Shown here: piece after piece, positions 11,722 through 64,000 of the stretch | Position numbering within the stretch: position 1 is the first letter of the stretch | Layout: every line of letters starts with the position of its first letter | From: a bacterium | GTDB lineage: Bacteria; UBA8248 | Length of the DNA stretch: 64,000 nt | Direction of reading: 5' to 3' | Assembly (NCBI GenBank): GCA_963692865.2 | Contig: OY843592.1 | Span: 1,773,690 to 1,837,689 of the forward strand | The notes under the pieces: generated by a model | What the model saw: only the letters and a program-made list of their open reading frames with translations | Database searches by the model: none | What the model was told of the DNA's origin: nothing | Translations under genes and position numbers: made by a program

Positions 11722-11797
11722 TGGTGGAGCTGAGGGGGATCGAACCCCTGACCTCATGACTGCCAGTCATGCGCTCTCCCAGCTGAGCTACAGCCCC
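11722..11797 (-). tRNA. tRNA-Ala(GGC): tRNA-Ala (anticodon GGC)
   Basis: The reverse complement reads GGGGCTGTAGCTCAGCTGGGAGAGCGCATGACTGGCAGTCATGAGGTCAGGGGTTCGATCCCCCTCAGCTCCACCA. It folds as a cloverleaf with anticodon stem CATGA/TCATG and loop CTGGCAG. It has the G3:U70 Ala identity pair, a GGTTCGATCC T-arm and an encoded CCA. Confidence 0.95.
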
Positions 11798-50294: not shown

Positions 50295-51767
50295 CCTTCT
50301 CTAATCGGGTAGGGCAAGTCAAGTTCCTCTCCCCTGGTTCTGTCAGACCTGTTCCGCCTTTGGCTGCAGATGACGCTCCATGGGGGTCTCGCTTCTCTTC
50401 GTGATCGACTCCCGAGCCGGGGGCCGTCAACAGGATGGGATCGGAGAACGAAGTGGAACAATCTTTCCTGCGCCCTCGCATCGTCACCGACGCAGCGGGG
50501 CTAGGCCGACAGCGTACTCACTTCGTCCCTCGTCCCCACGGGAGCATCCCCCGCCGAGGCGGAAGCTACAGGGTTTGTCTGTGGTCCTCCTTCTTCAGTG
50601 TCTCGACCTCAGGCAGCCGAAGCATCCGCGCCGTCGCGCTTCCAGCGGAACTCACTGCCATCCATCCACATGCGGTGCATGATGACGCCGAGCCGGCGGG
50701 CGAGCGCAACCTTCGCGCGCGACTTGCCGCGACGCTTCGCCACACCCATCGCCCAGGCTTTCAGCCATGACCACCGCGTCGTGCGCCCGAGCAAGACGTT
50801 GGCGGCTTCGTAGAGCGCCGCGCGCATCATCGCGTCGCCGCATTTGGAGATGCTTCCCGTGCGGTCGACCTCTCCGGATTGCCATTTGCGAGGCACAAGC
50901 CCGAAGTGCGCGCCCACCGAGCGCGAGCGCGCAAAACGCGATGGCACGTCGACGCTCGCCCGGAAGGTGAGCGCCGTCACCGGACCCACGCCGGGAACCG
51001 TCATCAGGCGCCGGCAGACCGGATCGGCTCGCGCCGCCTCCAGCATCATCCTGTGCAGCCGGACGTATTCCGCCAGCAGCGCAGAGCGAGCCCGCAGCAT
51101 CGGCGCCACCAGGCGCGCCAACTCCGGGCGCTCCGCGACCAGACACCCTACACGCGCCTCCAAACCGCGACGGGTGACCTTGCCCATCTTCAGCCCGAAG
51201 TTGCGCAGCGTGCCCCGGATGTGGGCCTCGGCGTCGCACAACTGCTTCAGCATGAACCTGCGGTTGGCGAGGAGCATGCGTTTTTCCTGGCTCGACACCG
51301 TCTTCACGTGCACCGGGCGAATCAGGTTCGCGCGAACCAACTGGGCGATGCCGCGCGCGTCGTCGCGGTCGCTCTTGTTCACCGTCGCCGAGAGCACCGC
51401 CTTCAGTTGCCGCGTCTCGGCGCAAACCACCGGGAACCCGGCCTCGGCCAGACCGTCATGGAGCCACTGTGACAGCGGCCCCGCCTCCAGGCAGATGCGC
51501 GTTACGCCGAAGGCCAGTCCGGTGAAGAACGCCACGAGGGCCGCGGGTTCGCTCGCGACCTTCGCCTCCCGGACGATCCCGCCCTCCGCGTCCACCACGC
51601 ACACACTCGTCCACTCCAACGACACGTCGAGTCCTGCAAAGTAGTTCATGACTGCTCCTCCTGCGGGCGCGTAGAGACCGGACCATCCCGGCCTCGCCTC
51701 GAATCATAAGGCAGAGGAACATCCGCCACACGCGGTAGTTCGCAGACCAACCCGATTACCCCATCTT
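50295..51767 (-). mobile_element. IS110-family insertion sequence, copy 2 (identical to 6486-7958)
   Basis: Exact identity over 1473 bp, including all nested ORFs in the track. Same orientation as copy 1. Confidence 0.9.
50609..51649 (-). CDS. IS110 family transposase (copy 2)
   Basis: The 346-aa translation is identical to that of 6800-7840. Confidence 0.9.
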   Translation of the reverse strand: MNYFAGLDVSLEWTSVCVVDAEGGIVREAKVASEPAALVAFFTGLAFGVTRICLEAGPLSQWLHDGLAEAGFPVVCAETRQLKAVLSATVNKSDRDDARGIAQLVRANLIRPVHVKTVSSQEKRMLLANRRFMLKQLCDAEAHIRGTLRNFGLKMGKVTRRGLEARVGCLVAERPELARLVAPMLRARSALLAEYVRLHRMMLEAARADPVCRRLMTVPGVGPVTALTFRASVDVPSRFARSRSVGAHFGLVPRKWQSGEVDRTGSISKCGDAMMRAALYEAANVLLGRTTRWSWLKAWAMGVAKRRGKSRAKVALARRLGVIMHRMWMDGSEFRWKRDGADASAA

Positions 51768-56289: not shown

Positions 56290-56690
56290 GTATCGCCCGC
56301 GGCGGGGGGCAAGTCAAAGGCGCGGGACGGCGGGGGGGCGCGTCCGCATCATCCGGGCGGCGTCGTTTCGTTCCCCCCTCAAGGGCCTGTTGAAAAACCC
56401 GTCCCTCTCGCGTCAACCACGTTCTGCCCGCGGGCCGGACGTGTATGTCCGGCCCGCAAAACCATCGCCTCACCCGCAGGGGCCGTTCGAGAACGGCCCT
56501 GCCCGGCGGAGAAACGGGCGCTTCTTTGCAGGGGTCGTAGGGGCCGCATACCATGCGGCCCGCGTCAGGCGGCGAAAAAGGCCGGGCCGCATGGTATGCG
56601 CGGGACAACCCCTCTTCGGGGTCGTCCCGCTGCGCCTCCCGTGTTTGACTTCGCCAGCCTTGAGTTTCTCTCCTCCCCGCTCCGCAATCA
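56290..56690. repeat. REP-like hairpin cluster
   Basis: Contains TGTTGAAAAACCCGTCCCTCTCGCGTCAACCACGTTCTGCCCG and the variant palindrome GGGCCGGACGTGTATGTCCGGCCC (56432-56455). GGGGCCGCATACCATGCGGCCC is also present. Confidence 0.7.
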
Positions 56691-57339
56691 AGCCTTGACA
56701 AAACCGCGGGGATTCCCGCAAAGTGGGTCCGCGCGGCGCAATCGACGGGGTGAATGACCGGCGGACGCCGCCTCCGGCGAGGCGGCCTTTCCGCAAAAGG
56801 CCGGAACGGGCGGCAAATTCACCTTGACAAGACGCGGAAGATTGTAGGAATATCGTGGTTGCGACACGTCCCACGAGGTGCAGTCGACTTCGGGCTGCCC
56901 GCTGAATACAAGACGGCCCTCCCCGAGAGGGGCGAAATAGGCGGGAACCCACCTCAAGAACTTCTTACCTTGTGGATTGTGTCGCGACCGGCCCGGACTG
57001 CACGCGCGGGCGGCCGCGCGGGACGGCGCAACCGGGAGAACAGCGAGCGGCGCTCAGGCCGCCCGCAGACGCGAGGGGAAAGGAGGCTCATCGGACGAGA
57101 CGCGAACGCGTCGGGAAACGCCTGTACCGGAACCGGCTTTGCGGCACGATTCACGAGGCGCGGTCATCCCCCGGTATGACGGTGGAAAATGAGGACCCGA
57201 CTCCCACCTCTGACGGAACGGCCAAGCGGGCCCGTCTCCGTCGACGATCCTCCTGTGGATTGTATGCCGAAGCGGAACGGACGGCGCGGGCGACCCACCC
57301 GCCGTCCTCCGCTCCGCTTTCATAAAGCACACAACCGGT

Positions 57340-57678
57340 TTTACGGCCCGGTCGATAGCACAACCACCACCGATAAGCGCACGGCCTATACGGGAACTCT
57401 CACCTGTCCTGCGGCCGGTTCGTGCGCCACTACCATTACCGGCAGCGGCGATAGCCAGACGATTGCGGTAACCGGCTACAAGTTCACGGGAAGCCGACAG
57501 GCCAGTCCGGCTGTTACTGCGTCGGACGGCGTGAGCGGACGAGAGCGCCACGGTGGCGCCCGGCTCCGTCGCGGGCACGTTCGGCGTTACCGGAACCGAC
57601 AAGATGGGGACGCCGGACGACGCCACGGACGACGTCACCACCAGCTACGTGGGCGCGTTCGGCGCGCACAAGCAGTAG
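57340..57678 (+). pseudogene. decayed paralogue of the lipoprotein gene at 59032-61020
   Basis: One frame gives ..TLTCPAAGSCATTITGSGDSQTIAVTGYKFTG.. (compare ..FICTGDICGPTYTITAGKFTTLPPGYLF.. in the intact gene). After a frame change, 57535-57678 gives ..APGSVAGTFGVTGTDKMGTPDDATDDVTTSYVGAFGAHKQ*. That compares with ..GSAAGTFGVTGGKDDDAMSIIGAFGAHNTQQ*. The 5' leader and 3' flank are also homologous. Confidence 0.6.
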
Positions 57679-57829
57679 AACGAAGCGCGATCGCTTCCGG
57701 CTCCGGGGCCGGGGCGGACGCATGAAGGATGAAAGATGGAAGACGAAGGATGACGGGAAAGACGCGCTCCGGCGGCCGGAAGGCGACGGAAGCGGGAGCC
57801 GCGCGGATGAGGGAGAGGAAAGAAGAAAA

Positions 57830-57934
57830 GGGGGGTGCCCGTTGGTTGCTTCCCTCGTGATAGAGCAAACTGTACCGCTCCCTGTTTAGAGTTTGAGTCC
57901 TCGAGCCGGGAACGGGAACAAGCGGGCATCCCCC
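57830..57934 (+). ncRNA. conserved 3'-flank structured element, copy A
   Basis: The closing stem pairs GGGGGGTGCCCGTTG (57830-57844) with CAAGCGGGCATCCCCC (57919-57934). Internal conserved blocks are TTGGTTGCT, AGAGCAAA, GTACCG and AGAGTTTGAGTCCTC. It is homologous to 61227-61333. Confidence 0.4.
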
Positions 57935-57972
57935 ACTCCCCTTATACGGATTTTCCCGGCGTTTGGCAAGAC

Positions 57973-58037
57973 GGAAAAAGGGCCGTCCCGCCCTCCCCGG
58001 AGGCTTCGCTCCGAACGGGCGGGCGGTTCCTTTTTTT
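57973..58037 (+). terminator. intrinsic-terminator-like hairpin with flanking A- and T-runs
   Basis: GGAAAAAGGGCCGTCCCGCCC .. GGGCGGGCGGTTCCTTTTTTT forms a GC-rich stem followed by T7. The upstream A5 would allow bidirectional function. Confidence 0.45.
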
Positions 58038-58049
58038 CGCGCGTGAGGG

Positions 58050-58360
58050 CCGGGCCCGGCGCGATGATCCCGCAGGGGCCGCACCGAACGGCGCCCGTAG
58101 GGGTCGCATATCATGCGACCCGCATATCGAACGGGGAGGGCCGCATAATATGCGGCCCCTACGGTGAGATCCCGACCGGCCCGCAAGGGCTTTTTCAACA
58201 GCCCCCTCAAGGGGGGAGTGGTTGTTCGCCGCCCCTCCGGCAACGGGCCGCATGGTATGCGGCCCCTGCAAACAAATTGTCTCTCTCCGGCTTTTCCAAC
58301 AGCCCCCTCAAGGGGGGAGTGGTTGTATGCCTCGCGCGTGGCGGGATTCCCCCCCCCAGG
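58050..58360. repeat. REP-like hairpin cluster
   Basis: Contains GGGGTCGCATATCATGCGACCC, GGGCCGCATAATATGCGGCCCCTAC and GGGCCGCATGGTATGCGGCCCCTGC. Two copies of TTTT(T/C)CAACAGCCCCCTCAAGGGGGGAGTGGTTGT are also present. Confidence 0.75.
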
Positions 58361-58363
58361 GCC

Positions 58364-58409
58364 GAAGTTGCGCGCAAATCCAAATAGAAGTTGCGCGCAA
58401 ATCCAAATA
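58364..58409 (+). promoter_or_regulatory. tandem 23-bp direct repeat, each with the palindrome TTGCGCGCAA
   Basis: GAAGTTGCGCGCAAATCCAAATA occurs twice (58364-58386 and 58387-58409). It lies immediately upstream of a TTGACA hexamer. Confidence 0.45.
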
Positions 58410-58414
58410 AAGGC

Positions 58415-58444
58415 TTGACAAACCCGAAGAAATTGCCGCACTAT
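58415..58444 (+). promoter_or_regulatory. sigma70-like promoter candidate for the lipoprotein leader
   Basis: TTGACA (58415-58420), an 18-nt spacer, then CACTAT (58439-58444). A related AAGCCTTGACAAAACC is present at about 56688 upstream of the decayed paralogue. Confidence 0.3.
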
Positions 58445-58638
58445 CCCAAGAGTCAAGCGATGCGCGAGAGCGGCGACCCTTCGCCCGCCGATTACCACCC
58501 GCCCCTCATTCGCGGGGCCGGGGAGAGCGGGCGCGGAGCGGCGCTCAGGCGCATCGCGAGAAGGCGGCCCGGTAAAGCGAAGACCCGAAAGACGCCGGGC
58601 GCGCGCGGACGACATCACGAGGCAGAGGACTCAAACCC

Positions 58639-58677
58639 ATGAAGCGCTACGCCACAAAACCACCTCCAGTCTCGTGA
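58639..58677 (+). CDS. leader uORF 1 (MKRYATKPPPVS)
   Basis: ATG is 8 nt after GAGGAC (58625-58630). There are 12 sense codons, then TGA. It is a paralogue of uORF 2. Confidence 0.4.
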   Translation: MKRYATKPPPVS

Positions 58678-58813
58678 ATCATCCGGCGGCCGGCCCTTAG
58701 GCCCGCTCGCGCGGGCGGCGGGAACCGGTTTCCTTCCGGCGGCCCGCGCAAGGCGGCGGGCCCGGCGGGCGCCGGCGAAGCGGCAGACATCACGAGGCGG
58801 AGGACTCGAACCC

Positions 58814-58852
58814 ATGAAGAAGTGCGCCGTAAAACCCCCTCCAACCTCGTAA
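58814..58852 (+). CDS. leader uORF 2 (MKKCAVKPPPTS)
   Basis: It has the same SD context (ATCACGAGGCGGAGGACTCGAACCC-ATG) and the same length and frame logic, ending in TAA. One Pro codon change is synonymous (CCA to CCC). Confidence 0.4.
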   Translation: MKKCAVKPPPTS

Positions 58853-59031
58853 ACCGCCCAGTGAACGGCCCGGCGCCCCGGCGCCGGTTCGAAACGCATA
58901 CTCGAATGCCCGATAACGGAGGATGCCGAGAAAGTCGGAAACACCAGGAAAGGAGGTTCTTCAATCCACGAGTTTCGGTTTTGTTGTTGTCAAAGCTCTT
59001 TTTATCACGAGACTAGGAGGACTCAAAAGTG

Positions 59032-61020
59032 ATGAAGATCACCGGAAACAGAATCTTTTCATTCATGCTGGCGGCGGCCTTCGCGCTGACGCTGGCGGGC
59101 TGCGGCGGAGGCGGCGGCGGGACGCCGGCGGCAGCGAAGTGTCCTGACGGTCAGGTCGGGACGCCCCCGAACTGCACGACCCCGCCGCCGAAGGCGACGG
59201 ACGACGAGAAGTTCGCCGCGCGGGCGGCGAGAGACAGAGCCGAGACCGCCAGGATGGACGCGATGGCCGCGATGGGCGGCGACGACGGCTCGGTCGCCAT
59301 GACCGCAGCGGCCGCGACGGCGGCGGCCGGTTCCGCGAGCGCCGCGGCCGATTCCGCGAGCATGGCCATGGCCGGGCGGACGGACTACGCGAACGCCAAG
59401 AAGGCGAGCGATGAAGCCGCCGGCGAGAACACGAAGGCCGCGACCGCGAAGACGGCGGCCGACGGCGCGCAGACCGCTCTGGATGATGCCGTCACGGTCT
59501 ATAACGCGGCGGTGGACGGTCAGGACATCGAGACGAAGGCCGGCGCGCTCGCCATCAAGGCGGCCGCCGACACGCTCAGGGCCGCCGCCATGAAGGCGCA
59601 GGCGGACGCCGCGAAGGCGCAGGCGGACGCGGAAGCGGCGAGAGACGCGGCGAAGTCCGATGCGGCCGATGCGGCGAAGTACGCCGCCATGCACGTCCTG
59701 GGCTTGCTCAAGGCGGCGAACCCGGCGGACGATCCCGACACCGACGGTGATAACCAGAACGAAAACGCCAACCGCGTGAAGGCCGTGACGGCCTCCATGA
59801 CCTCGGCGGCAGGCGCAACCCCGGGTGATGGAAACCAGAGAGAAGGTGGAAGCAATATTACGGTCACCATTTCGTATAACCGTTCAGCGGCGGAAGATGA
59901 CGAAGACACGAAGGACGTGGATGAGTCCGCCCCGGTATATGCCTTCGCGGTTACAGGTCCCGTGGAAATTACGAACGACGAGTTCACAGCCGATACCCCC
60001 ACCGCCAAAAAGAAAGATCTGATGGACCTGGGCGGGTTCAAGGGTTTCGAGTTGGAGAAGACCACTGGCGGCAGCACCACTTATGTCCACGCCTACACGG
60101 ACATCACAGCGCAAAAGATACATACGACGCCGGTTGTGAAGACACAGGGCCCAGATGTTGGCAACCCTGCAAGTACCCAAGCCGACGCCACCGCGCCCTC
60201 CGGTTGGAGTCCCGGCAAAGGCGAAGCCCATTCCTTCATGGGAAAGTATGACCATGATAATGACACTGCAACTAAATCGCTTTCGGGCGTGTTCATCTGT
60301 ACCGGAGACATCTGTGGCCCCACATATACGATAACGGCCGGGAAATTCACGACGCTTCCCCCTGGCTACCTCTTCAGGCCCGATCCGGTGACGACGGGCG
60401 GGGAGCCCACGCTGGACAGCGATTTCACTCAAGATGGAGACCAATTCGATCGCGACGGCGATTTCCTGACCTTCGGCGTCTGGCTGCAAGTTCCGGACAC
60501 GACTGGCGCTAGCAACACCCCTGATAGTATATCGAGCGGCGTGTTCGCGAGCGGCAACGACCCGTACACGGTGACTGTGGCCCGTACGGGCACGGCGTCG
60601 TATAGCGGCCCGGCCGTGGGCGTCAAGTCGATGGGCGGCGCCGTGAGCCACGTGGACGGCACCGCCAGCCTGGATGTGAATTTCGGCACGAAACCCGAGG
60701 AGGGCGATGACACTTCCATGGGAACCATCGAAGGGACGGTCAGCTTGGGCGCGGACACGATCAGGCTCATCAGAAGCAACATCGATGCTGACGGCGGCGG
60801 TTTCAATGGAAATACGTCGATGGGACCGATAAACGACACAACCGCCGCGTATAAGTACAACGGCAAGTTCGGCGGCAGGTTCTATGGTCCGGACACGGAT
60901 TCCGATGGAGACGCCATCGAGCCCGGCTCCGCCGCGGGCACCTTCGGCGTAACCGGCGGTAAGGACGACGACGCCATGAGCATCATCGGCGCGTTCGGCG
61001 CGCACAACACGCAGCAGTAG
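59032..61020 (+). CDS. lipoprotein with C-terminal TbpB/fHbp-type beta-barrel domain (surface-lipoprotein-like)
   Basis: AGGAGGA SD. The lipobox is ..ALTLAGC followed by a Gly linker, then an Ala-rich helical region. The C-terminus YSGPAVG..ASLDVNFG..GTIEGTV..FNG..GKFGGRFYGP..EPGSAAGTFGV..IIGAFGAH matches the TbpB_B_D-like barrel pattern. The track start GTG 59029 is also possible. Confidence 0.65.
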   Translation: MKITGNRIFSFMLAAAFALTLAGCGGGGGGTPAAAKCPDGQVGTPPNCTTPPPKATDDEKFAARAARDRAETARMDAMAAMGGDDGSVAMTAAAATAAAGSASAAADSASMAMAGRTDYANAKKASDEAAGENTKAATAKTAADGAQTALDDAVTVYNAAVDGQDIETKAGALAIKAAADTLRAAAMKAQADAAKAQADAEAARDAAKSDAADAAKYAAMHVLGLLKAANPADDPDTDGDNQNENANRVKAVTASMTSAAGATPGDGNQREGGSNITVTISYNRSAAEDDEDTKDVDESAPVYAFAVTGPVEITNDEFTADTPTAKKKDLMDLGGFKGFELEKTTGGSTTYVHAYTDITAQKIHTTPVVKTQGPDVGNPASTQADATAPSGWSPGKGEAHSFMGKYDHDNDTATKSLSGVFICTGDICGPTYTITAGKFTTLPPGYLFRPDPVTTGGEPTLDSDFTQDGDQFDRDGDFLTFGVWLQVPDTTGASNTPDSISSGVFASGNDPYTVTVARTGTASYSGPAVGVKSMGGAVSHVDGTASLDVNFGTKPEEGDDTSMGTIEGTVSLGADTIRLIRSNIDADGGGFNGNTSMGPINDTTAAYKYNGKFGGRFYGPDTDSDGDAIEPGSAAGTFGVTGGKDDDAMSIIGAFGAHNTQQ

Positions 61021-61226: not shown

Positions 61227-61333
61227 GGGGGTTACTCATTGGTTGCTCTACATCGTCGAGAGCAAAAGGTACCGGCCCATGCGACAGAGTTTGAGTCCTC
61301 TTCGGCGTGGCAAGGGAGCAATGAGTAACCCCC
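61227..61333 (+). ncRNA. conserved 3'UTR structured element, copy B
   Basis: A perfect 15-bp closing stem pairs GGGGGTTACTCATTG (61227-61241) with CAATGAGTAACCCCC (61319-61333). An inner hairpin is TTGCTCT/AGAGCAA. The AGAG-TTTGAGTC-CTCT hairpin (61286-61301) carries GTTTGAGTCCTC. Confidence 0.45.
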
Positions 61334-61399
61334 ACCGCTCTCTATACGCGCATTCCCCGGGTTTGGCAACCCCCCGAGCGGCGTGACCGCCCCGGCGCG

Positions 61400-61860
61400 G
61401 CAAGGGGACGGAAAAAGGCCGCCGCTCAGGATCGCGCCGTAGGTCGGACATATATGTCCGACATACCATGCGACCCGGCCTTTCCGCCCCTCCGCAACGG
61501 GCCGCATGATATGCGGCCCCTACAAACAAATTGTCTCTCTCCGGCTTTTTCAACCCCCCCCTCCCCGGGGAAGTCCGCCGCTCAGGATCGCGCCGTAGGT
61601 CGGACATATATGTCCGACATATCATGCGACCCGTTGCGGAGAGGGGCGGCGAACAATCACTCCCCCTCAAGGGGTTGTTGAAAAACCTGGCCCTCTCGGA
61701 TCAACCACGTTTTACCCGCAGGTCGGACATATATGTCCAACATATCATGCGACCCGTATTGTGAAGGCGAAAAAGCCGGGCCGCATGATATGCGGCCCCT
61801 ACAATAGAAACGACAATGACGGCGGTGGTCAATCCGAGCGAGGAGGGGGGGGCGCGGCGT
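61400..61860. repeat. REP-like hairpin cluster between convergent operons
   Basis: Contains three GTCGGACATATATGTCC(G/A)AC palindromes (61443-61462, 61599-61618, 61722-61741). Two GGGCCGCATGATATGCGGCCCCTACAA hairpins and TTGTTGAAAAACC modules are also present. Confidence 0.8.
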
Positions 61861-61865
61861 CCGGC

Positions 61866-62441
61866 TCACTTCAAGTCCGCGAACGGACCCGGGTCCGCCT
61901 CCAGCCCCAGGTAGTTCGCGCGGATGTGGTTCCACAGGGCGAGCTTCGTCCAGTCGGCGGTTTCGAGCACGCGGTAGTTCCGGTCGAAGAACGGGTTGGG
62001 GAGGTGGAAGGTCGTCATCTGCTCGCCGCGCCCGTTCAGGAGCGCCATCGAATAGCTCACCGGCGCGTGGCCCGCGACGGGCGGGTTCTGGTAAATCCTG
62101 AGCAGGGTCGCCCGCGCGCACCTTCTCCACCGCGCAAGCTCCGGCGGGCAGGTACGCCGCTCGTCGCCCCGGTGCTCGCCGATGCACAGGTGGAAGTGCC
62201 AGTCGCCGAGATCGACCGTGAGGTAGCCGTCGAGGTAGCCGATCCGGCGGGGCGGGTCTTTCATGCGGTATTCGAACACGGCCCCCTGGATGCAGTGCCC
62301 GAAGACGATCGACTCGTAGTGGTTATCGAGGAGGTCGCGGAGGAGGGTCTCGAGGAGTTCGCGTCCGGGCCGGAACTCCCAGACGGAATGGAGGCTGCCG
62401 TCGGGGCCGGTTTCTTCGCGGTATTGCGCGTCCGTCTTCAT
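61866..62441 (-). CDS. hypothetical protein (last gene of the TonB/ABC uptake operon)
   Basis: 191-aa ORF. Only a weak pattern-level resemblance to ChuX/HutX-type haem-utilisation proteins (..GYLDGYLTVDLGDWHFHLCIGE..), so the function is not asserted. Confidence 0.5.
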   Translation of the reverse strand: MKTDAQYREETGPDGSLHSVWEFRPGRELLETLLRDLLDNHYESIVFGHCIQGAVFEYRMKDPPRRIGYLDGYLTVDLGDWHFHLCIGEHRGDERRTCPPELARWRRCARATLLRIYQNPPVAGHAPVSYSMALLNGRGEQMTTFHLPNPFFDRNYRVLETADWTKLALWNHIRANYLGLEADPGPFADLK

Positions 62442-62476
62442 GCGGGACTCCTTGTGCGAGGCGCGCCGCTCTTGGG

Positions 62477-62887
62477 CTAATCGGTCGTTCGCGTGAGAGT
62501 ATAGCGTATGGTGAGGACGAGCGTCTTATCGAGCCGGGGCAGGGGCGCCGCTTTCCGCACCGCATCGAGCGTGGCGGCGTCCAGGTGGGCGTTGCCCGAG
62601 GTCTTCTTGATCCGCAAACCCGCAAGCCGCCCGTCCGGCAGCACCCGGAAGCTCACCGTGGCCGCGCCCTCCGCCCCCGATTCGCGCGCGAGCGCGGGAT
62701 AATGCCGGTGGCGCCTGATGCGAGCGAGGATCGCCTGAAGCCGGGCGTCGGCGTCCATCCGGGCCCGGCGCTTCCTGAAGGTGAAGGAGGGCGCATCCAC
62801 GGTCGTCTCTATCTCCTGGGCGGGCAGCGGCGCGGGGGCGGAGAGCAGGAACAGCGCGAGCGCGATGAGAATGACGGCCGCTCTCAT
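62477..62887 (-). CDS. TonB C-terminal-domain protein
   Basis: Signal or anchor MRAAVILIALALFLLSAP. ..YPALARESGAEGAATVSFRVLPDGRLAGLRIKKTSGNAHLDAATLDAVRKA.. is the TonB_C fold signature. Confidence 0.75.
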   Translation of the reverse strand: MRAAVILIALALFLLSAPAPLPAQEIETTVDAPSFTFRKRRARMDADARLQAILARIRRHRHYPALARESGAEGAATVSFRVLPDGRLAGLRIKKTSGNAHLDAATLDAVRKAAPLPRLDKTLVLTIRYTLTRTTD

Positions 62888-63669
62888 CCCTTCTCCTCCG
62901 GCGCGCGCATGACGAAGAACCGCTCCTCCCCGCCGTTTACCGCGATGATCTCGGCGCGCACCTCGAACGCCTTCTCGATGAGCCGGGGCGTCAGGACGCT
63001 CCCGGCGTCTCCCTGGGCGAGTATCTCTCCCCGGTGGAGCAGGAGCAGTTCGTCGCAGAAGCGGCCCGCGAGGTTCAAGTCGTGAACCGAGACCACCACG
63101 GCGCGGCCCTCGCGCGCCTGCGCGCGCAGGATGGCGAGGATGTCGAGGCAGTGCCTCGCGTCCAGGTTCGCGAAGGGCTCGTCCAGCAGCAGGACGGGCG
63201 TTTGCGCGGCGAGCGTCCTCGCGATCAGGACGCGCTGCAGCTCACCGCCCGAGAGTTCGTTGATCGCGCGGTTCGCCAAGTCTCCCGCGTCCACGCCGCG
63301 AAGGGCGGCGTCCACCGCCGCGCGGTCGGCGTCGTTCTCGGGGGCGAGCCTGCCCTGGCGGGGGTATCTCCCCATCATCACCGTCTCCTCGACCCGGAAG
63401 GGAAAGGCGGGTTCGTGCTTCTGGGCGAGATAGCCCACGCGGCGCGCGGTTTCCCGCCTGTCGAACGAATCGATGGATTCGCCGTTGAGCGTAATGCGCC
63501 CGCTCTTCAGGGGCGCGAGACCCGCCAGCGCGCGCAGGAGCGTCGTCTTGCCCGCGCCGTTCGCGCCGATGACGCCCGTGAGCGCGCCGGGCCCGAATTC
63601 GGCCGATACGCCCCGGAGCGCCTCTCTCTCGCCGAGTTCGACGGTAACGTTCTCCGCTCTTATCCGCAT
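62884..63669 (-). CDS. iron/haem/cobalamin-type ABC transporter ATP-binding protein (FecE/HmuV-like)
   Basis: The start is set at the internal ATG 63669 (MRIRAENVTVELG..), overlapping the permease stop. It has Walker A GANGAGKTT, signature LSGGELQRVLIA and Walker B LLLDEP. The longer N-terminus in the track is Arg/Gly junk. Confidence 0.8.
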   Translation of the reverse strand: MRIRAENVTVELGEREALRGVSAEFGPGALTGVIGANGAGKTTLLRALAGLAPLKSGRITLNGESIDSFDRRETARRVGYLAQKHEPAFPFRVEETVMMGRYPRQGRLAPENDADRAAVDAALRGVDAGDLANRAINELSGGELQRVLIARTLAAQTPVLLLDEPFANLDARHCLDILAILRAQAREGRAVVVSVHDLNLAGRFCDELLLLHRGEILAQGDAGSVLTPRLIEKAFEVRAEIIAVNGGEERFFVMRAPEEKG

Positions 63670-64000
63670 CAGAAGGTCTCCGCGCGCGCGCGGTTCTTGA
63701 CGATGAGATACAGGAAAAACGGCCCGCCGATGCCCGCGGAGAGGACGCCCAGGCGTATCTCGCCCGCCGGCGCGAGCGTTCGCGCGAGCAGGTCCATCCC
63801 CATCACGAAAACCGCGCCCGCCGCCACGCTCAAGTACAGGAGTCTCCTGTGGTCCGGCCCGGCCAGCATCCGCACGATGTGGGGGACGAGCAGGCCCACG
63901 AAGCCGACCACGCCCGCCACGGCCACGGACGCTCCCGCCGCCGCCGCCGCGACCACGAGTATCCACGCCTTCGTCCGCTTCGTGTTCACGCCGAGCGCCA
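63669..64000 (-). CDS. FecCD-family ABC transporter permease (N-terminus outside window)
   Basis: ..GFVGLLVPHIVRMLAGPDHRRLL.. and ..GVLSAGIGGPFFLYL.. are C-terminal FecCD/BtuC motifs. The frame is open to the window edge. Confidence 0.75.
   Translation of the reverse strand, partial: ALGVNTKRTKAWILVVAAAAAGASVAVAGVVGFVGLLVPHIVRMLAGPDHRRLLYLSVAAGAVFVMGMDLLARTLAPAGEIRLGVLSAGIGGPFFLYLIVKNRARAETF

Follow-up and report, generated by a model that had tools for sequence, protein, structure and literature searches.

A tandem array of decoy start regions as a candidate translational attenuator in the leader of a surface lipoprotein gene

The stretch of 64,000 nucleotides (nt) analysed here, referred to below as the window, comes from a bacterium of the lineage UBA8248 (assembly GCA_963692865.2, contig OY843592.1, forward-strand positions 1,773,690 to 1,837,689). 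Towards its end lies a gene for a surface lipoprotein whose 631-nt leader holds two 12-codon open reading frames (mini-ORFs) in tandem. Behind the gene lies a structured element of 105-107 nt, element D, and a second copy of D lies behind a decayed paralogue of the gene. An initial annotation, made from the letters alone, read the mini-ORFs as upstream ORFs (uORFs) with a conserved Lys-Pro-Pro-Pro core that might stall ribosomes and attenuate the gene. Both ORFs exist as described and agree in length, frame and stop position, but a recount puts the nucleotide differences between them at 10, not 9. Each is opened by the block ATCACGAGGC(A/G)GAGGACTC(A/G)AACCCATG, which occurs in exactly two copies, at 58614-58641 and 58789-58816, with no match in 100 shuffles; the duplication was correctly seen, although its coordinates had taken in two surplus bases in each copy. 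A third version, said to form the ribosome-binding site (RBS) of the lipoprotein gene, is indeed found there as ATCACGAGACTAGGAGGACTCAAAAGTGATG. This third version is the real translation initiation region (TIR) of the gene; a decoy copy of it is called a pseudo-TIR, and a strand complementary to it an anti-TIR. The core 11-mer GAGGACTCAAA has five copies between 57.8 and 61.3 kb and none elsewhere in the 64 kb. Two of the five, missed earlier, are on the minus strand (57892-57902 and 61290-61300), each about 200-270 nt beyond the stop codon of a lipoprotein gene, the decayed one in the first case and the intact one in the second.

The same arrangement recurs in related genomes. A pattern scan of one genome per species returned seven genomes with three to five block copies in one locus each, and ten other hits that were single, chance-level matches within unrelated sequence. 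A scan of metagenome contigs added two loci, while protein look-ups added three type-1 loci (L023, L024 and L025) and a type-2 locus, L020. The loci come from sponge-associated metagenome-assembled genomes, and sponge metagenome is the label of the RNA runs in which the locus occurs. Twelve related loci follow one layout, with two to four repeat units, here called modules, in a leader of about 600 nt. This type-1 plan opens with a promoter block (TTGCGCGCAA palindrome, TTGACA), a 5' domain of about 170 nt and between one and three type A modules. Next come a single type B module with an 11-bp GC hairpin behind it, a pre-TIR block and the invariant real TIR. The rest is made up of a TbpB-like lipoprotein gene or a pair of them, a GC hairpin kept just past the stop codon, element D and an intrinsic terminator on the plus strand. 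In the window, both modules are A-like and a B module is absent, module 2 occupying the position of the type B module of other loci.

Each module measures about 65-69 nt (68-69 nt with flanks) and is built as a fold-back. The 5' arm copies the real TIR, with AUCACGAG, a Shine-Dalgarno (SD)-like (A/G)GAGGACUCAA and AUG, and the 3' arm, CC(C/U)CUCCAGUCUCGUGA, spells the codons K-P-(P/S)-P-V-S-stop. In the hairpin, AUCACGAGGC of the 5' arm pairs with GUCUCGUGAU and the pseudo-SD (A/G)GAGG pairs with CCUC(U/C), leaving the ATG and the first mini-ORF codons in a C/A-rich loop. Conservation reaches 93-94% in the arms and 79-83% in the loop with those first codons. With the structure fixed across the modules, the share of paired cells is 88%; controls in which the partner is displaced by 1-3 columns reach 39-49%. 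The minimum free energy (MFE) of the hairpin gives z = -3.3 to -4.0, and module 1 of the window has an MFE of -19.6 kcal/mol (z = -3.6). In module 2 of the window, AGAGG/CCUCU has become GGAGG/CCUCC, alongside a second stem, ACGAGG/CCUCGU. Modules without ATG keep both arms, and in one module that lacks both start and stop (L015_A2) a flip from U-A to A-U preserves the stem. The minus strand of the modules folds better (-25.3 vs -21.0 kcal/mol); this advantage reflects G/U richness, not function, and folding energy was discarded as uninformative about the strand. What was described as a conserved KPPPxS-stop peptide end is the 3' strand of a conserved hairpin.

The same 3' strand matches the real start of the gene. 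Where the 5' arm reads AUCACGAG-GCY-AGAGGACUCAA, the real TIR reads AUCACGAG-ACU-AGGAGGACUCAA; because the arm is a near-copy of the real TIR, the 3' arm is also complementary to the real TIR, AUCACGAGACUAGGAGG, which lies 150-400 nt downstream. The mean duplex energy of the 3' arm is -22.3 kcal/mol with the real TIR and -20.4 kcal/mol with its own arm, whereas shuffled arms give about -8 +/- 2.5 kcal/mol, and in 26 of 30 modules the real TIR is paired at least as strongly as the own arm. For module 1 of the window the two values are -26.4 and -19.8 kcal/mol. In the ensemble of the whole 631-nt leader, 58663-58677 is predicted to pair with 59005-59020 through 15 bp and one bulge (p = 0.88), CCUCC-AGUCUCGUGA (P-P-V-S-stop) facing UCACGAGACU-A-GGAGG, and the real SD is 3-9% unpaired. 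In all nine loci that have a B module, the real SD is predicted to pair with the type B 3' arm (p = 0.4-0.96). One G.U pair, a signature of dual pairing, is kept in 23 of 25 modules: its U faces G in the decoy and A in the real TIR, and no other base can pair with both. Module 2 of the window has C at this position.

Transcription of the leader is documented in an orthologue. Contigs from eight sponge metatranscriptomes equal the leader of L018 (9432-9902) at 100% identity, spanning modules A1, A2 and B, and none of the eight yields a contig match upstream of the L018 promoter block. With the promoter block upstream in all loci, this bears out the earlier placement of the blocks within a transcribed leader; a transcription start downstream of the uORFs, named as the finding that would speak against a role for them, is not what L018 displays. 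The L018 gene body was not recovered at 100% identity in the metatranscriptome contigs; leader RNA could be more abundant than the gene body, contig depth being too crude to tell. No intrinsic terminator (hairpin plus U-tract) was found on the plus strand of the leader, either in the window or in L010, and attenuation by intrinsic termination is rejected on this ground. The uORFs themselves are thus not followed by an intrinsic terminator. The GC-rich hairpin reported past the second uORF does exist, one position further on than the annotated range of about 58869-58886 (Table 1). At the orthologous position other loci have an 11-bp hairpin, CCGGCCCGGAC-N6-GUCCGGGCCGG, with a freely variable loop.

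The observed complementarities, their conservation and the transcription of the leader can be drawn together in one proposal, to which an even chance is given: the leader would be a tandem pseudo-TIR/anti-TIR translational attenuator, and the uORFs would be copies of a module that works at the level of RNA. The pairing switch, the direction of its effect and the role of translation might be as follows. The real SD would be free as long as each anti-TIR is engaged with its own decoy or lies under a ribosome; a released anti-TIR would clamp the real SD together with the 10 nt before it, and translation would be blocked. Ribosomes starting on a mini-ORF would enter the anti-TIR, which makes up the last six codons, and would keep the arm off the real TIR. 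The likeliest toggle would be translation of the mini-ORF, comparable to that of erm leader peptides or of Salmonella mgtQ. On type B modules, which lack the stop, ribosomes would continue through the arm and the gene-proximal GC hairpin. In copies with three consecutive prolines (PPP), a pause would lengthen the coverage of the anti-SD, but such a pause cannot be the conserved principle because most orthologues read PSP and some modules are untranslatable. Element D may act as a second anti-TIR on the SD-spacer region, in the manner of icaR, or as a mimic RNA, and either role would be compatible with the attenuator.

Several results weigh against the attenuator proposal. Covariation in the module hairpin is weak, with two pairs changed on both sides, a number that 60 of 500 shuffles reach, and the stem rests mainly on conserved complementarity. 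Part of the anti-TIR match follows from common descent, the decoy being homologous to the real TIR. The 3' arm of module 2 in the window prefers its own partner (-17.7 kcal/mol, against -14.0 kcal/mol for the real TIR). The MFE structure of the window leader also differs from the near-isoenergetic ensemble majority, in that it pairs the module-1 3' arm with the module-2 5' arm; this modelled alternative would illustrate that the module arms are interchangeable. Finally, all long-range pairings come from thermodynamic prediction on an RNA about 630 nt long.

The type-2 paralogue shows how the modules came about. In L020 the real gene start is TTATCACGACGATGAGGAGGACTCACTCT-ATG and the protein begins MLFCVKTPINKLYVFG. 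About 216 nt 5' of this start lies a duplicate, TTATCACGACGATGCGGAGGACTCACTCA-ATG, that encodes MLFCTKTPTSKLYVFG-stop and comprises the TIR plus the first 16 codons. The genome of the window itself holds a copy of L020 (P0006), and the window peptide MKKCAVKPPPTS resembles the L020 N-terminus (C-x-V/T-K-x-P). Part of the pre-TIR block also occurs in the L020 leader. Given this upstream duplicate of TIR and 16 codons, the modules derive from duplicated start regions, and in the type-1 lineage they have gained or kept the fold-back arm. L020 (2731-3000) also has anti-SD-like repeats, three copies of GGCCUUCUC placed in small hairpins, and downstream is a Slam (PF04575) gene.

Table 1. Features of the lipoprotein locus and of its decayed paralogue (positions within the window)
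Feature	Position	Strand	Description
Decayed module	57148-57215	+	In the leader of the decayed paralogue; TTCACGAGGCG...GAGGACCCGACTCCCACCTCTGACGG; resembles type B; ATG 57189 at pseudo-SD position, not a mini-ORF start
D1	57830-57934	+	3' of the decayed lipoprotein gene; ~70% identity to D2; AGAGTTTGAGTCCTC intact
Promoter-like pair	57946-57980	-	TTGCCA/TATAG(R) before D1; same position in 6 other loci
Terminator-like hairpin with T-run	~58005-58035	+	3' of D1
Promoter block	58368-58420	+	TTGCGCGCAA palindromes at 58368-58377 and 58391-58400; -35-like TTGACA at 58415-58420
Leader 5' domain	58445-58611	+	Includes hairpin GGCCCGG..AAGACGACGACCC-like loop..CCGGGC at ~58566-58600
Module 1	58614-58678	+	Pseudo-TIR 5' arm 58614-58641 (AUCACGAGGCAGAGGACUCAAACCCAUG), mini-ORF 1, anti-TIR 3' arm 58663-58677 (CCUCCAGUCUCGUGA)
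Mini-ORF 1	58639-58677	+	ATG AAG CGC TAC GCC ACA AAA CCA CCT CCA GTC TCG TGA; peptide MKRYATKPPPVS
Module 2	58789-58853	+	Pseudo-TIR 58789-58816, mini-ORF 2, 3' arm CCCCCUCCAACCUCGUAA at 58835-58852
Mini-ORF 2	58814-58852	+	Stop TAA; peptide MKKCAVKPPPTS
GC-rich hairpin	58870-58887	+	CCGGCGC-CCCG-GCGCCGG; 3' of module 2; followed by TTCGAAACG; no U-tract
Pre-TIR block	58910-58995	+	GCCCGAUAACGG..AAAGUCGGAAA..GAAAGGAGGU..GUUUUGUUG..AAAGCUCUUU; conserved in all type-1 loci
Real TIR of lipoprotein gene	59004-59034	+	AUCACGAGACUAGGAGGACUCAAAAGUGAUG; same in all 12 type-1 loci bar 1-nt variants
Lipoprotein gene	59029-61020	+	662 aa from ATG 59032; lipobox LAGC then G run, Ala-rich middle, TbpB-like C-terminal barrel
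D2	61227-61333	+	107 nt; behind the intact lipoprotein gene; hairpin UUGCUCU..AGAGCAA
Promoter-like pair	61341-61369	-	TTGCCA, 17-nt spacer, TATAGA, 7 nt to the GGGGG that starts D2

Element D offers a second complement to the start of the gene. Outside the window it is present in L003, L005, L010, L015, L017-L019 and L023-L025. Its plus strand folds into a closing stem of 14-15 bp, a hairpin UUGCUC..GAGCAA and a stem enclosing AGAG-UUUGAGUC-CUCU. At 61290-61297, the loop of D2 is reverse-complementary to the TIR core GAGGACUCAAA, which lies between SD and start. Taken together, loop and 3' stem strand match this core as an exact complement, without variation in 11 D copies; in the window, UUUGAGUCCUC at 61290-61300 (plus strand) faces GAGGACUCAAA at 59017-59027. 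The fixed structure pairs in 96.9% of cells, compared with 41-54% in slid controls. Six pairs have changed on both sides, mostly through D1, and none of 500 shuffles reaches that number; the closing stem of D1 alone has three to four compensated pairs. The plus strand folds better in nine of nine copies (alifold -49.9 vs -41.0) and includes several G.U pairs. The loop is predicted to be unpaired with p = 0.98 in D2 and p = 0.94-0.99 in five of eight copies. In the duplex search of whole D against the whole leader, RNAduplex places huge loops in long inputs, and accessibilities alone were used.

No match to an Rfam family, a tRNA or a transfer-messenger RNA (tmRNA) was found for D (Rfam 15, ARAGORN), and a tRNA-like or tmRNA identity is rejected on the ARAGORN result. 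Other identities also fail. The outer ends lack the core of an integron attC site; a 10-codon ORF on the minus strand, which might have made D a coding mini-gene, is broken in L003, L018 and D1; and the spacing of TGGCAA after D does not fit a sigma-54 promoter.

Transcripts and promoter-like sequences around D point in two directions. An RNA contig from a related community (410 nt, depth 20, direction-less) covers 57698-58026, ending at the plus-strand terminator with zero depth beyond. On the minus strand, the arrangement TTGCCA-17 nt-TATAG(R)-6 to 8 nt-GGGGG is kept in eight contexts while the spacer sequence varies. Its -10 element is without the usual final T, so it is missing from a consensus scan. 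Judged from this sequence pattern, the pair may be the promoter of an antisense or mimic RNA. Tandem insertions resembling repetitive extragenic palindromes (REP-like) lie between the minus-strand pair and D in L010, L015 and L005.

It is possible, though rather unlikely, that D is itself the regulator, either as a structure in the 3' untranslated region (UTR) or as a separate small RNA. Its loop UUUGAGUC(CUC) would pair with GAGGACUCAAA at the real SD-spacer region and at every pseudo-TIR, giving icaR-type 5'-3' UTR control or antisense control in which the leader copies titrate D; such control could coexist with the attenuator. The exact 11-nt complement, kept in all D copies and found nowhere else in the 64 kb, speaks for this possibility, as do the compensatory changes, the accessible loop, the better fold of the plus strand with its G.U pairs, the RNA contig that spans D1 to the plus-strand terminator, and the icaR precedent (PMC3868564). 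D1 keeps its structure and a 15-nt core beside a gene reduced to fragments, so that D seems to have a target other than the gene upstream of it and may act in trans. Against this, the invariance of the 11-mer means that no covariation with the TIR is demonstrable, D is perhaps a mere inverted duplicate of a module, and the minus-strand promoter-like pair would yield a sense copy rather than the complement. Moreover, D was not seen in the eight metatranscriptomes that show the L018 leader, and the type-2 paralogue has duplicated TIRs and no D. More speculative still is a three-part circuit in which tandem decoy/anti-TIR hairpins, the real TIR and a separately maintained D, maybe transcribed from both strands and acting in trans, would jointly set the expression of a hypervariable lipoprotein that is swapped between strains.

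The stalling explanation, in which the mini-ORFs are translated and a K-P-P-P stall dependent on elongation factor P (EF-P) or on proline attenuates the lipoprotein gene as in Salmonella mgtP/mgtL, is improbable. Both window copies do have an SD-like motif, an ATG and PPP, and EF-P control via consecutive Pro codons is documented for mgtB and mgtA (PMC5299641; PMC6460261). The PPP codons lie on the anti-SD, so a stalled ribosome would cover the anti-TIR. Among the A-type modules, 15 of 21 keep the SD-like motif, the ATG and an in-frame stop 11-13 codons on; each leader retains at least one intact mini-ORF, and the ATG is better kept than the adjacent codons. Translation of some copies is thus plausible. 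The other six have no such frame, and the module is conserved in all of them nonetheless. Four have GCG in place of ATG with the rest of the module kept (L010_A1, L013_A2, L017_A1 (apparently orthologous) and L015_A2), and two (L001_A2 and L003_A2) carry a 1-nt insertion that puts the stop out of frame. Compared across the related loci, the mini-ORFs are only partly preserved as reading frames.

The peptide itself fares no better than the frame. PPP occurs in only 4 of the 15 translatable copies, 10 reading PSP and one PST, which contradicts a conserved K-P-P-P-x-S core. Type-B modules keep the SD-like motif and ATG in nine of nine cases and have UGG for UGA; their ORFs of 33-44 codons cross the GC hairpin, end at differing stops and read PTPVSW or PTLVSW. 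Ser and Pro alternate (UCU/CCU) because the codon makes either a G.U or a G-C pair with the last G of the pseudo-SD. The synonymous Pro change (CCA/CCC), offered earlier as a sign of selection on translation, falls just 5' of the paired anti-SD and is uninformative. In the A-type ORFs, column entropy is 0.47, 0.42 and 0.42 at codon positions 1, 2 and 3, and a coding signal is rejected for want of any codon-position bias; such equal variability means that the peptide is not the conserved thing. With PPP not kept, some modules untranslatable and no terminator in the leader, EF-P-dependent polyproline stalling falls away as a conserved basis. The degenerate version reported at 57189 (MRTRLPPL), in the leader of the decayed paralogue, has no homologous reading frame, its ATG lying inside the pseudo-SD (aATGAGGACCCGACTCCCAC) of a decayed module.

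A low probability also attaches to a protein-based explanation, in which the motif (stem AGAG(G), loop (G)ACUCAA, GGA) is the site of an RNA-binding protein, CsrA-like or a dedicated repressor, that would sit on the real SD, with the leader copies and a minus-strand D transcript serving as extra sites or decoys. A motif of the same sense is similarly displayed in the modules and in minus-strand D (AGAG-GACUCAAA-CUCU), the promoter-like element for the D minus strand is conserved, and the window leader contains many GGA motifs. Yet no candidate protein is linked to the locus, D folds better on its plus strand, and protein binding would not require the strict conservation of the 3' arm or its match to the real TIR. 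Least probable is a DNA-level or functionless origin as duplication or recombination scars, or as the inverted-repeat sites of an invertible RBS-D switch, since the variable module number (2 to 4), a partial internal duplication in L001_A2, the swapping of the gene body between strains with its flanks kept and the inversion of GAGGACTCAAA on both sides of the gene have to be set against module length and arm complementarity held across genomes whose lipoproteins are 30-46% identical, a conserved G.U pair that is sensible only in plus-strand RNA, the lack of a recombinase conserved at the locus, and a single orientation in 12 of 12 loci, on which the invertible segment is rejected. No strand-changing joints at the repeats were found in contigs of four DNA runs, although contigs drop rare variants and an inversion of low frequency might go unseen.

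Upstream of the modules, the promoter block AAGTTGCGCGCAAGTT..AAATAAAGGSTTGACAA..TTGCCGCACTATC is kept in all related loci, and a 77% identical copy at 56686-56720 stands ahead of the decayed paralogue. A strict sigma-70 scan returned nothing at 58368-58420, and the -10 element is ambiguous. The perfect palindrome TTGCGCGCAA lies just 5' of TTGACA, double in the window and single in other loci, and is probably the operator for a transcription factor. In the 5' domain (about 170 nt), blocks (GAGCGGGAAC; GCCCGGAAGACGACGACCCRGAAGGTTCCGGGC) and the closing stem are conserved among nine aligned loci. Its hairpin at 58566-58600 is strongly kept across orthologues together with its loop (GCCCGG-AAGACGACGACCCRGAAGGUU-CCGGGC) and could be a sensor domain.

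The lipoprotein gene itself is far more variable than its surroundings. Its match to TbpB_B_D is weak (E = 0.0037, 18.2 bits, under the 26-bit cut-off). Background on the Slam-dependent surface lipoprotein family is given in PMC5449769; paralogues L020 and L021 adjoin Slam (PF04575) genes, and no Slam gene was found in the examined parts of the window. Between close strains the lipoprotein body is swapped (59114-60921 in the window, 1346-3403 in L023). P0007 is 33% identical overall, with the first 41 amino acids identical, and the leader, both mini-ORFs, the 3' trailer and D are nearly unchanged where the body differs. DNA contigs of three runs show an alternative join of 59114 to 60921. The replacement looks like allelic cassette exchange at a surface protein.

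The decayed paralogous locus (56686-57725) still has its promoter block, D1 and a terminator; its leader is degenerate, and the C-terminal half of the lipoprotein survives as pieces in two frames. Its leader and trailer are still transcribed in a related community, at depths of 9.5 and 20, and it may persist as a non-coding RNA or a silent cassette. REP-like palindrome families (GGGGCCGCATRNTATGCGGCCCC; GTCGGACATATATGTCCGAC; CCCCCTCAAGGGGGGAGTG) are dense at 56370-56600, 58050-58340 and 61415-61810. Their read depth is 10-70x that of the flanks, and they are therefore repeated genome-wide. An IS110-family transposase ORF (DEDD_Tnp_IS110 and Transposase_20; 50609-51649, minus strand) lies about 7 kb off, outside the conserved architecture. 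Downstream, at 61866-63989 on the minus strand, are a DUF7676 protein, a protein with a TonB C-terminal domain and an ATP-binding cassette (ABC) ATPase with permease; L023 has the same neighbours, which hints at an uptake function linked to the lipoprotein. At the gathering threshold, Rfam reports only a tRNA (11725-11797) in the window, and at E <= 10 or E <= 1 nothing credible appears in 56.5-62 kb, L010 or L015. A cobalamin riboswitch, suspected from GGGAA, AGCCCGGAAGAC-like strings and the TonB/ABC neighbours, is unsupported by Rfam.

If the attenuator proposal is true, the gene would control its own RBS through tandem decoys and matching anti-sites, going beyond the single attenuators of the erm/cat/mgt kind. 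A duplication of the start region would have been turned into a regulator, with the type-2 paralogue retaining the raw duplication. Since leader and trailer are constant around a gene body exchanged between strains, the control region may matter for variable surface display by uncultured sponge symbionts. For genome scans the lesson is that what looks like a conserved leader peptide may in fact reflect conservation of an RNA strand.

By analogy, the mechanism would belong to the class of leader-ORF/anti-SD translational attenuators. For erm, the proposal is that the inhibitory stem-loop is destabilised by a ribosome that has stalled on the leader peptide (PMC5118997), and in mgtQ translation of an 8-codon ORF frees a sequestered RBS (PMC8092293). 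Like erm, cat and mgtQ-mgtB, the leader described here has a short ORF with its own SD upstream, an ORF segment that is complementary to the SD region of the regulated gene and has an alternative local partner, and a choice of pairing that a ribosome on the ORF would decide. Unlike in those systems, the local partner is a decoy that closely copies the real TIR; two to four units follow one another in tandem over about 400 nt; and some units lack a start codon. The masked region also reaches 10 nt upstream of the SD, and no inducer or arrest sequence is evident.

Likeness to mgtP and mgtL, of mgtCBR and mgtA, is confined to the window copies, where an ORF with Pro codons overlaps alternative stem-loops (PMC5299641; PMC6460261); PSP is the common form here, no terminator is present, and the Pro codons are explained as the anti-SD strand (CCUCC). 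Pairing between 5' and 3' UTRs masks the SD in icaR of S. aureus and hbs of B. subtilis (PMC3868564; PMC5737220), and element D likewise places a motif complementary to the SD region 3' of the coding region of the same gene. It differs from both in that its complement sits in the loop of a 105-nt structure with a 14-bp closing stem and covers SD and spacer. D also matches several leader decoys, possibly has a minus-strand promoter of its own and persists beside a decayed gene.

In MS2 coat-replicase coupling, sequence within an upstream ORF pairs over a long distance with the downstream RBS, and traversing ribosomes open the pairing. An upstream ORF segment is predicted to pair with a downstream RBS over a distance here too, but the ORFs are of 11-13 codons (33-44 in type B), have no evident product, stand in tandem and come each with its own decoy. 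What would be new with respect to these systems is the design of tandem decoy TIRs, the fact that some units are no longer translatable and the linkage to element D.

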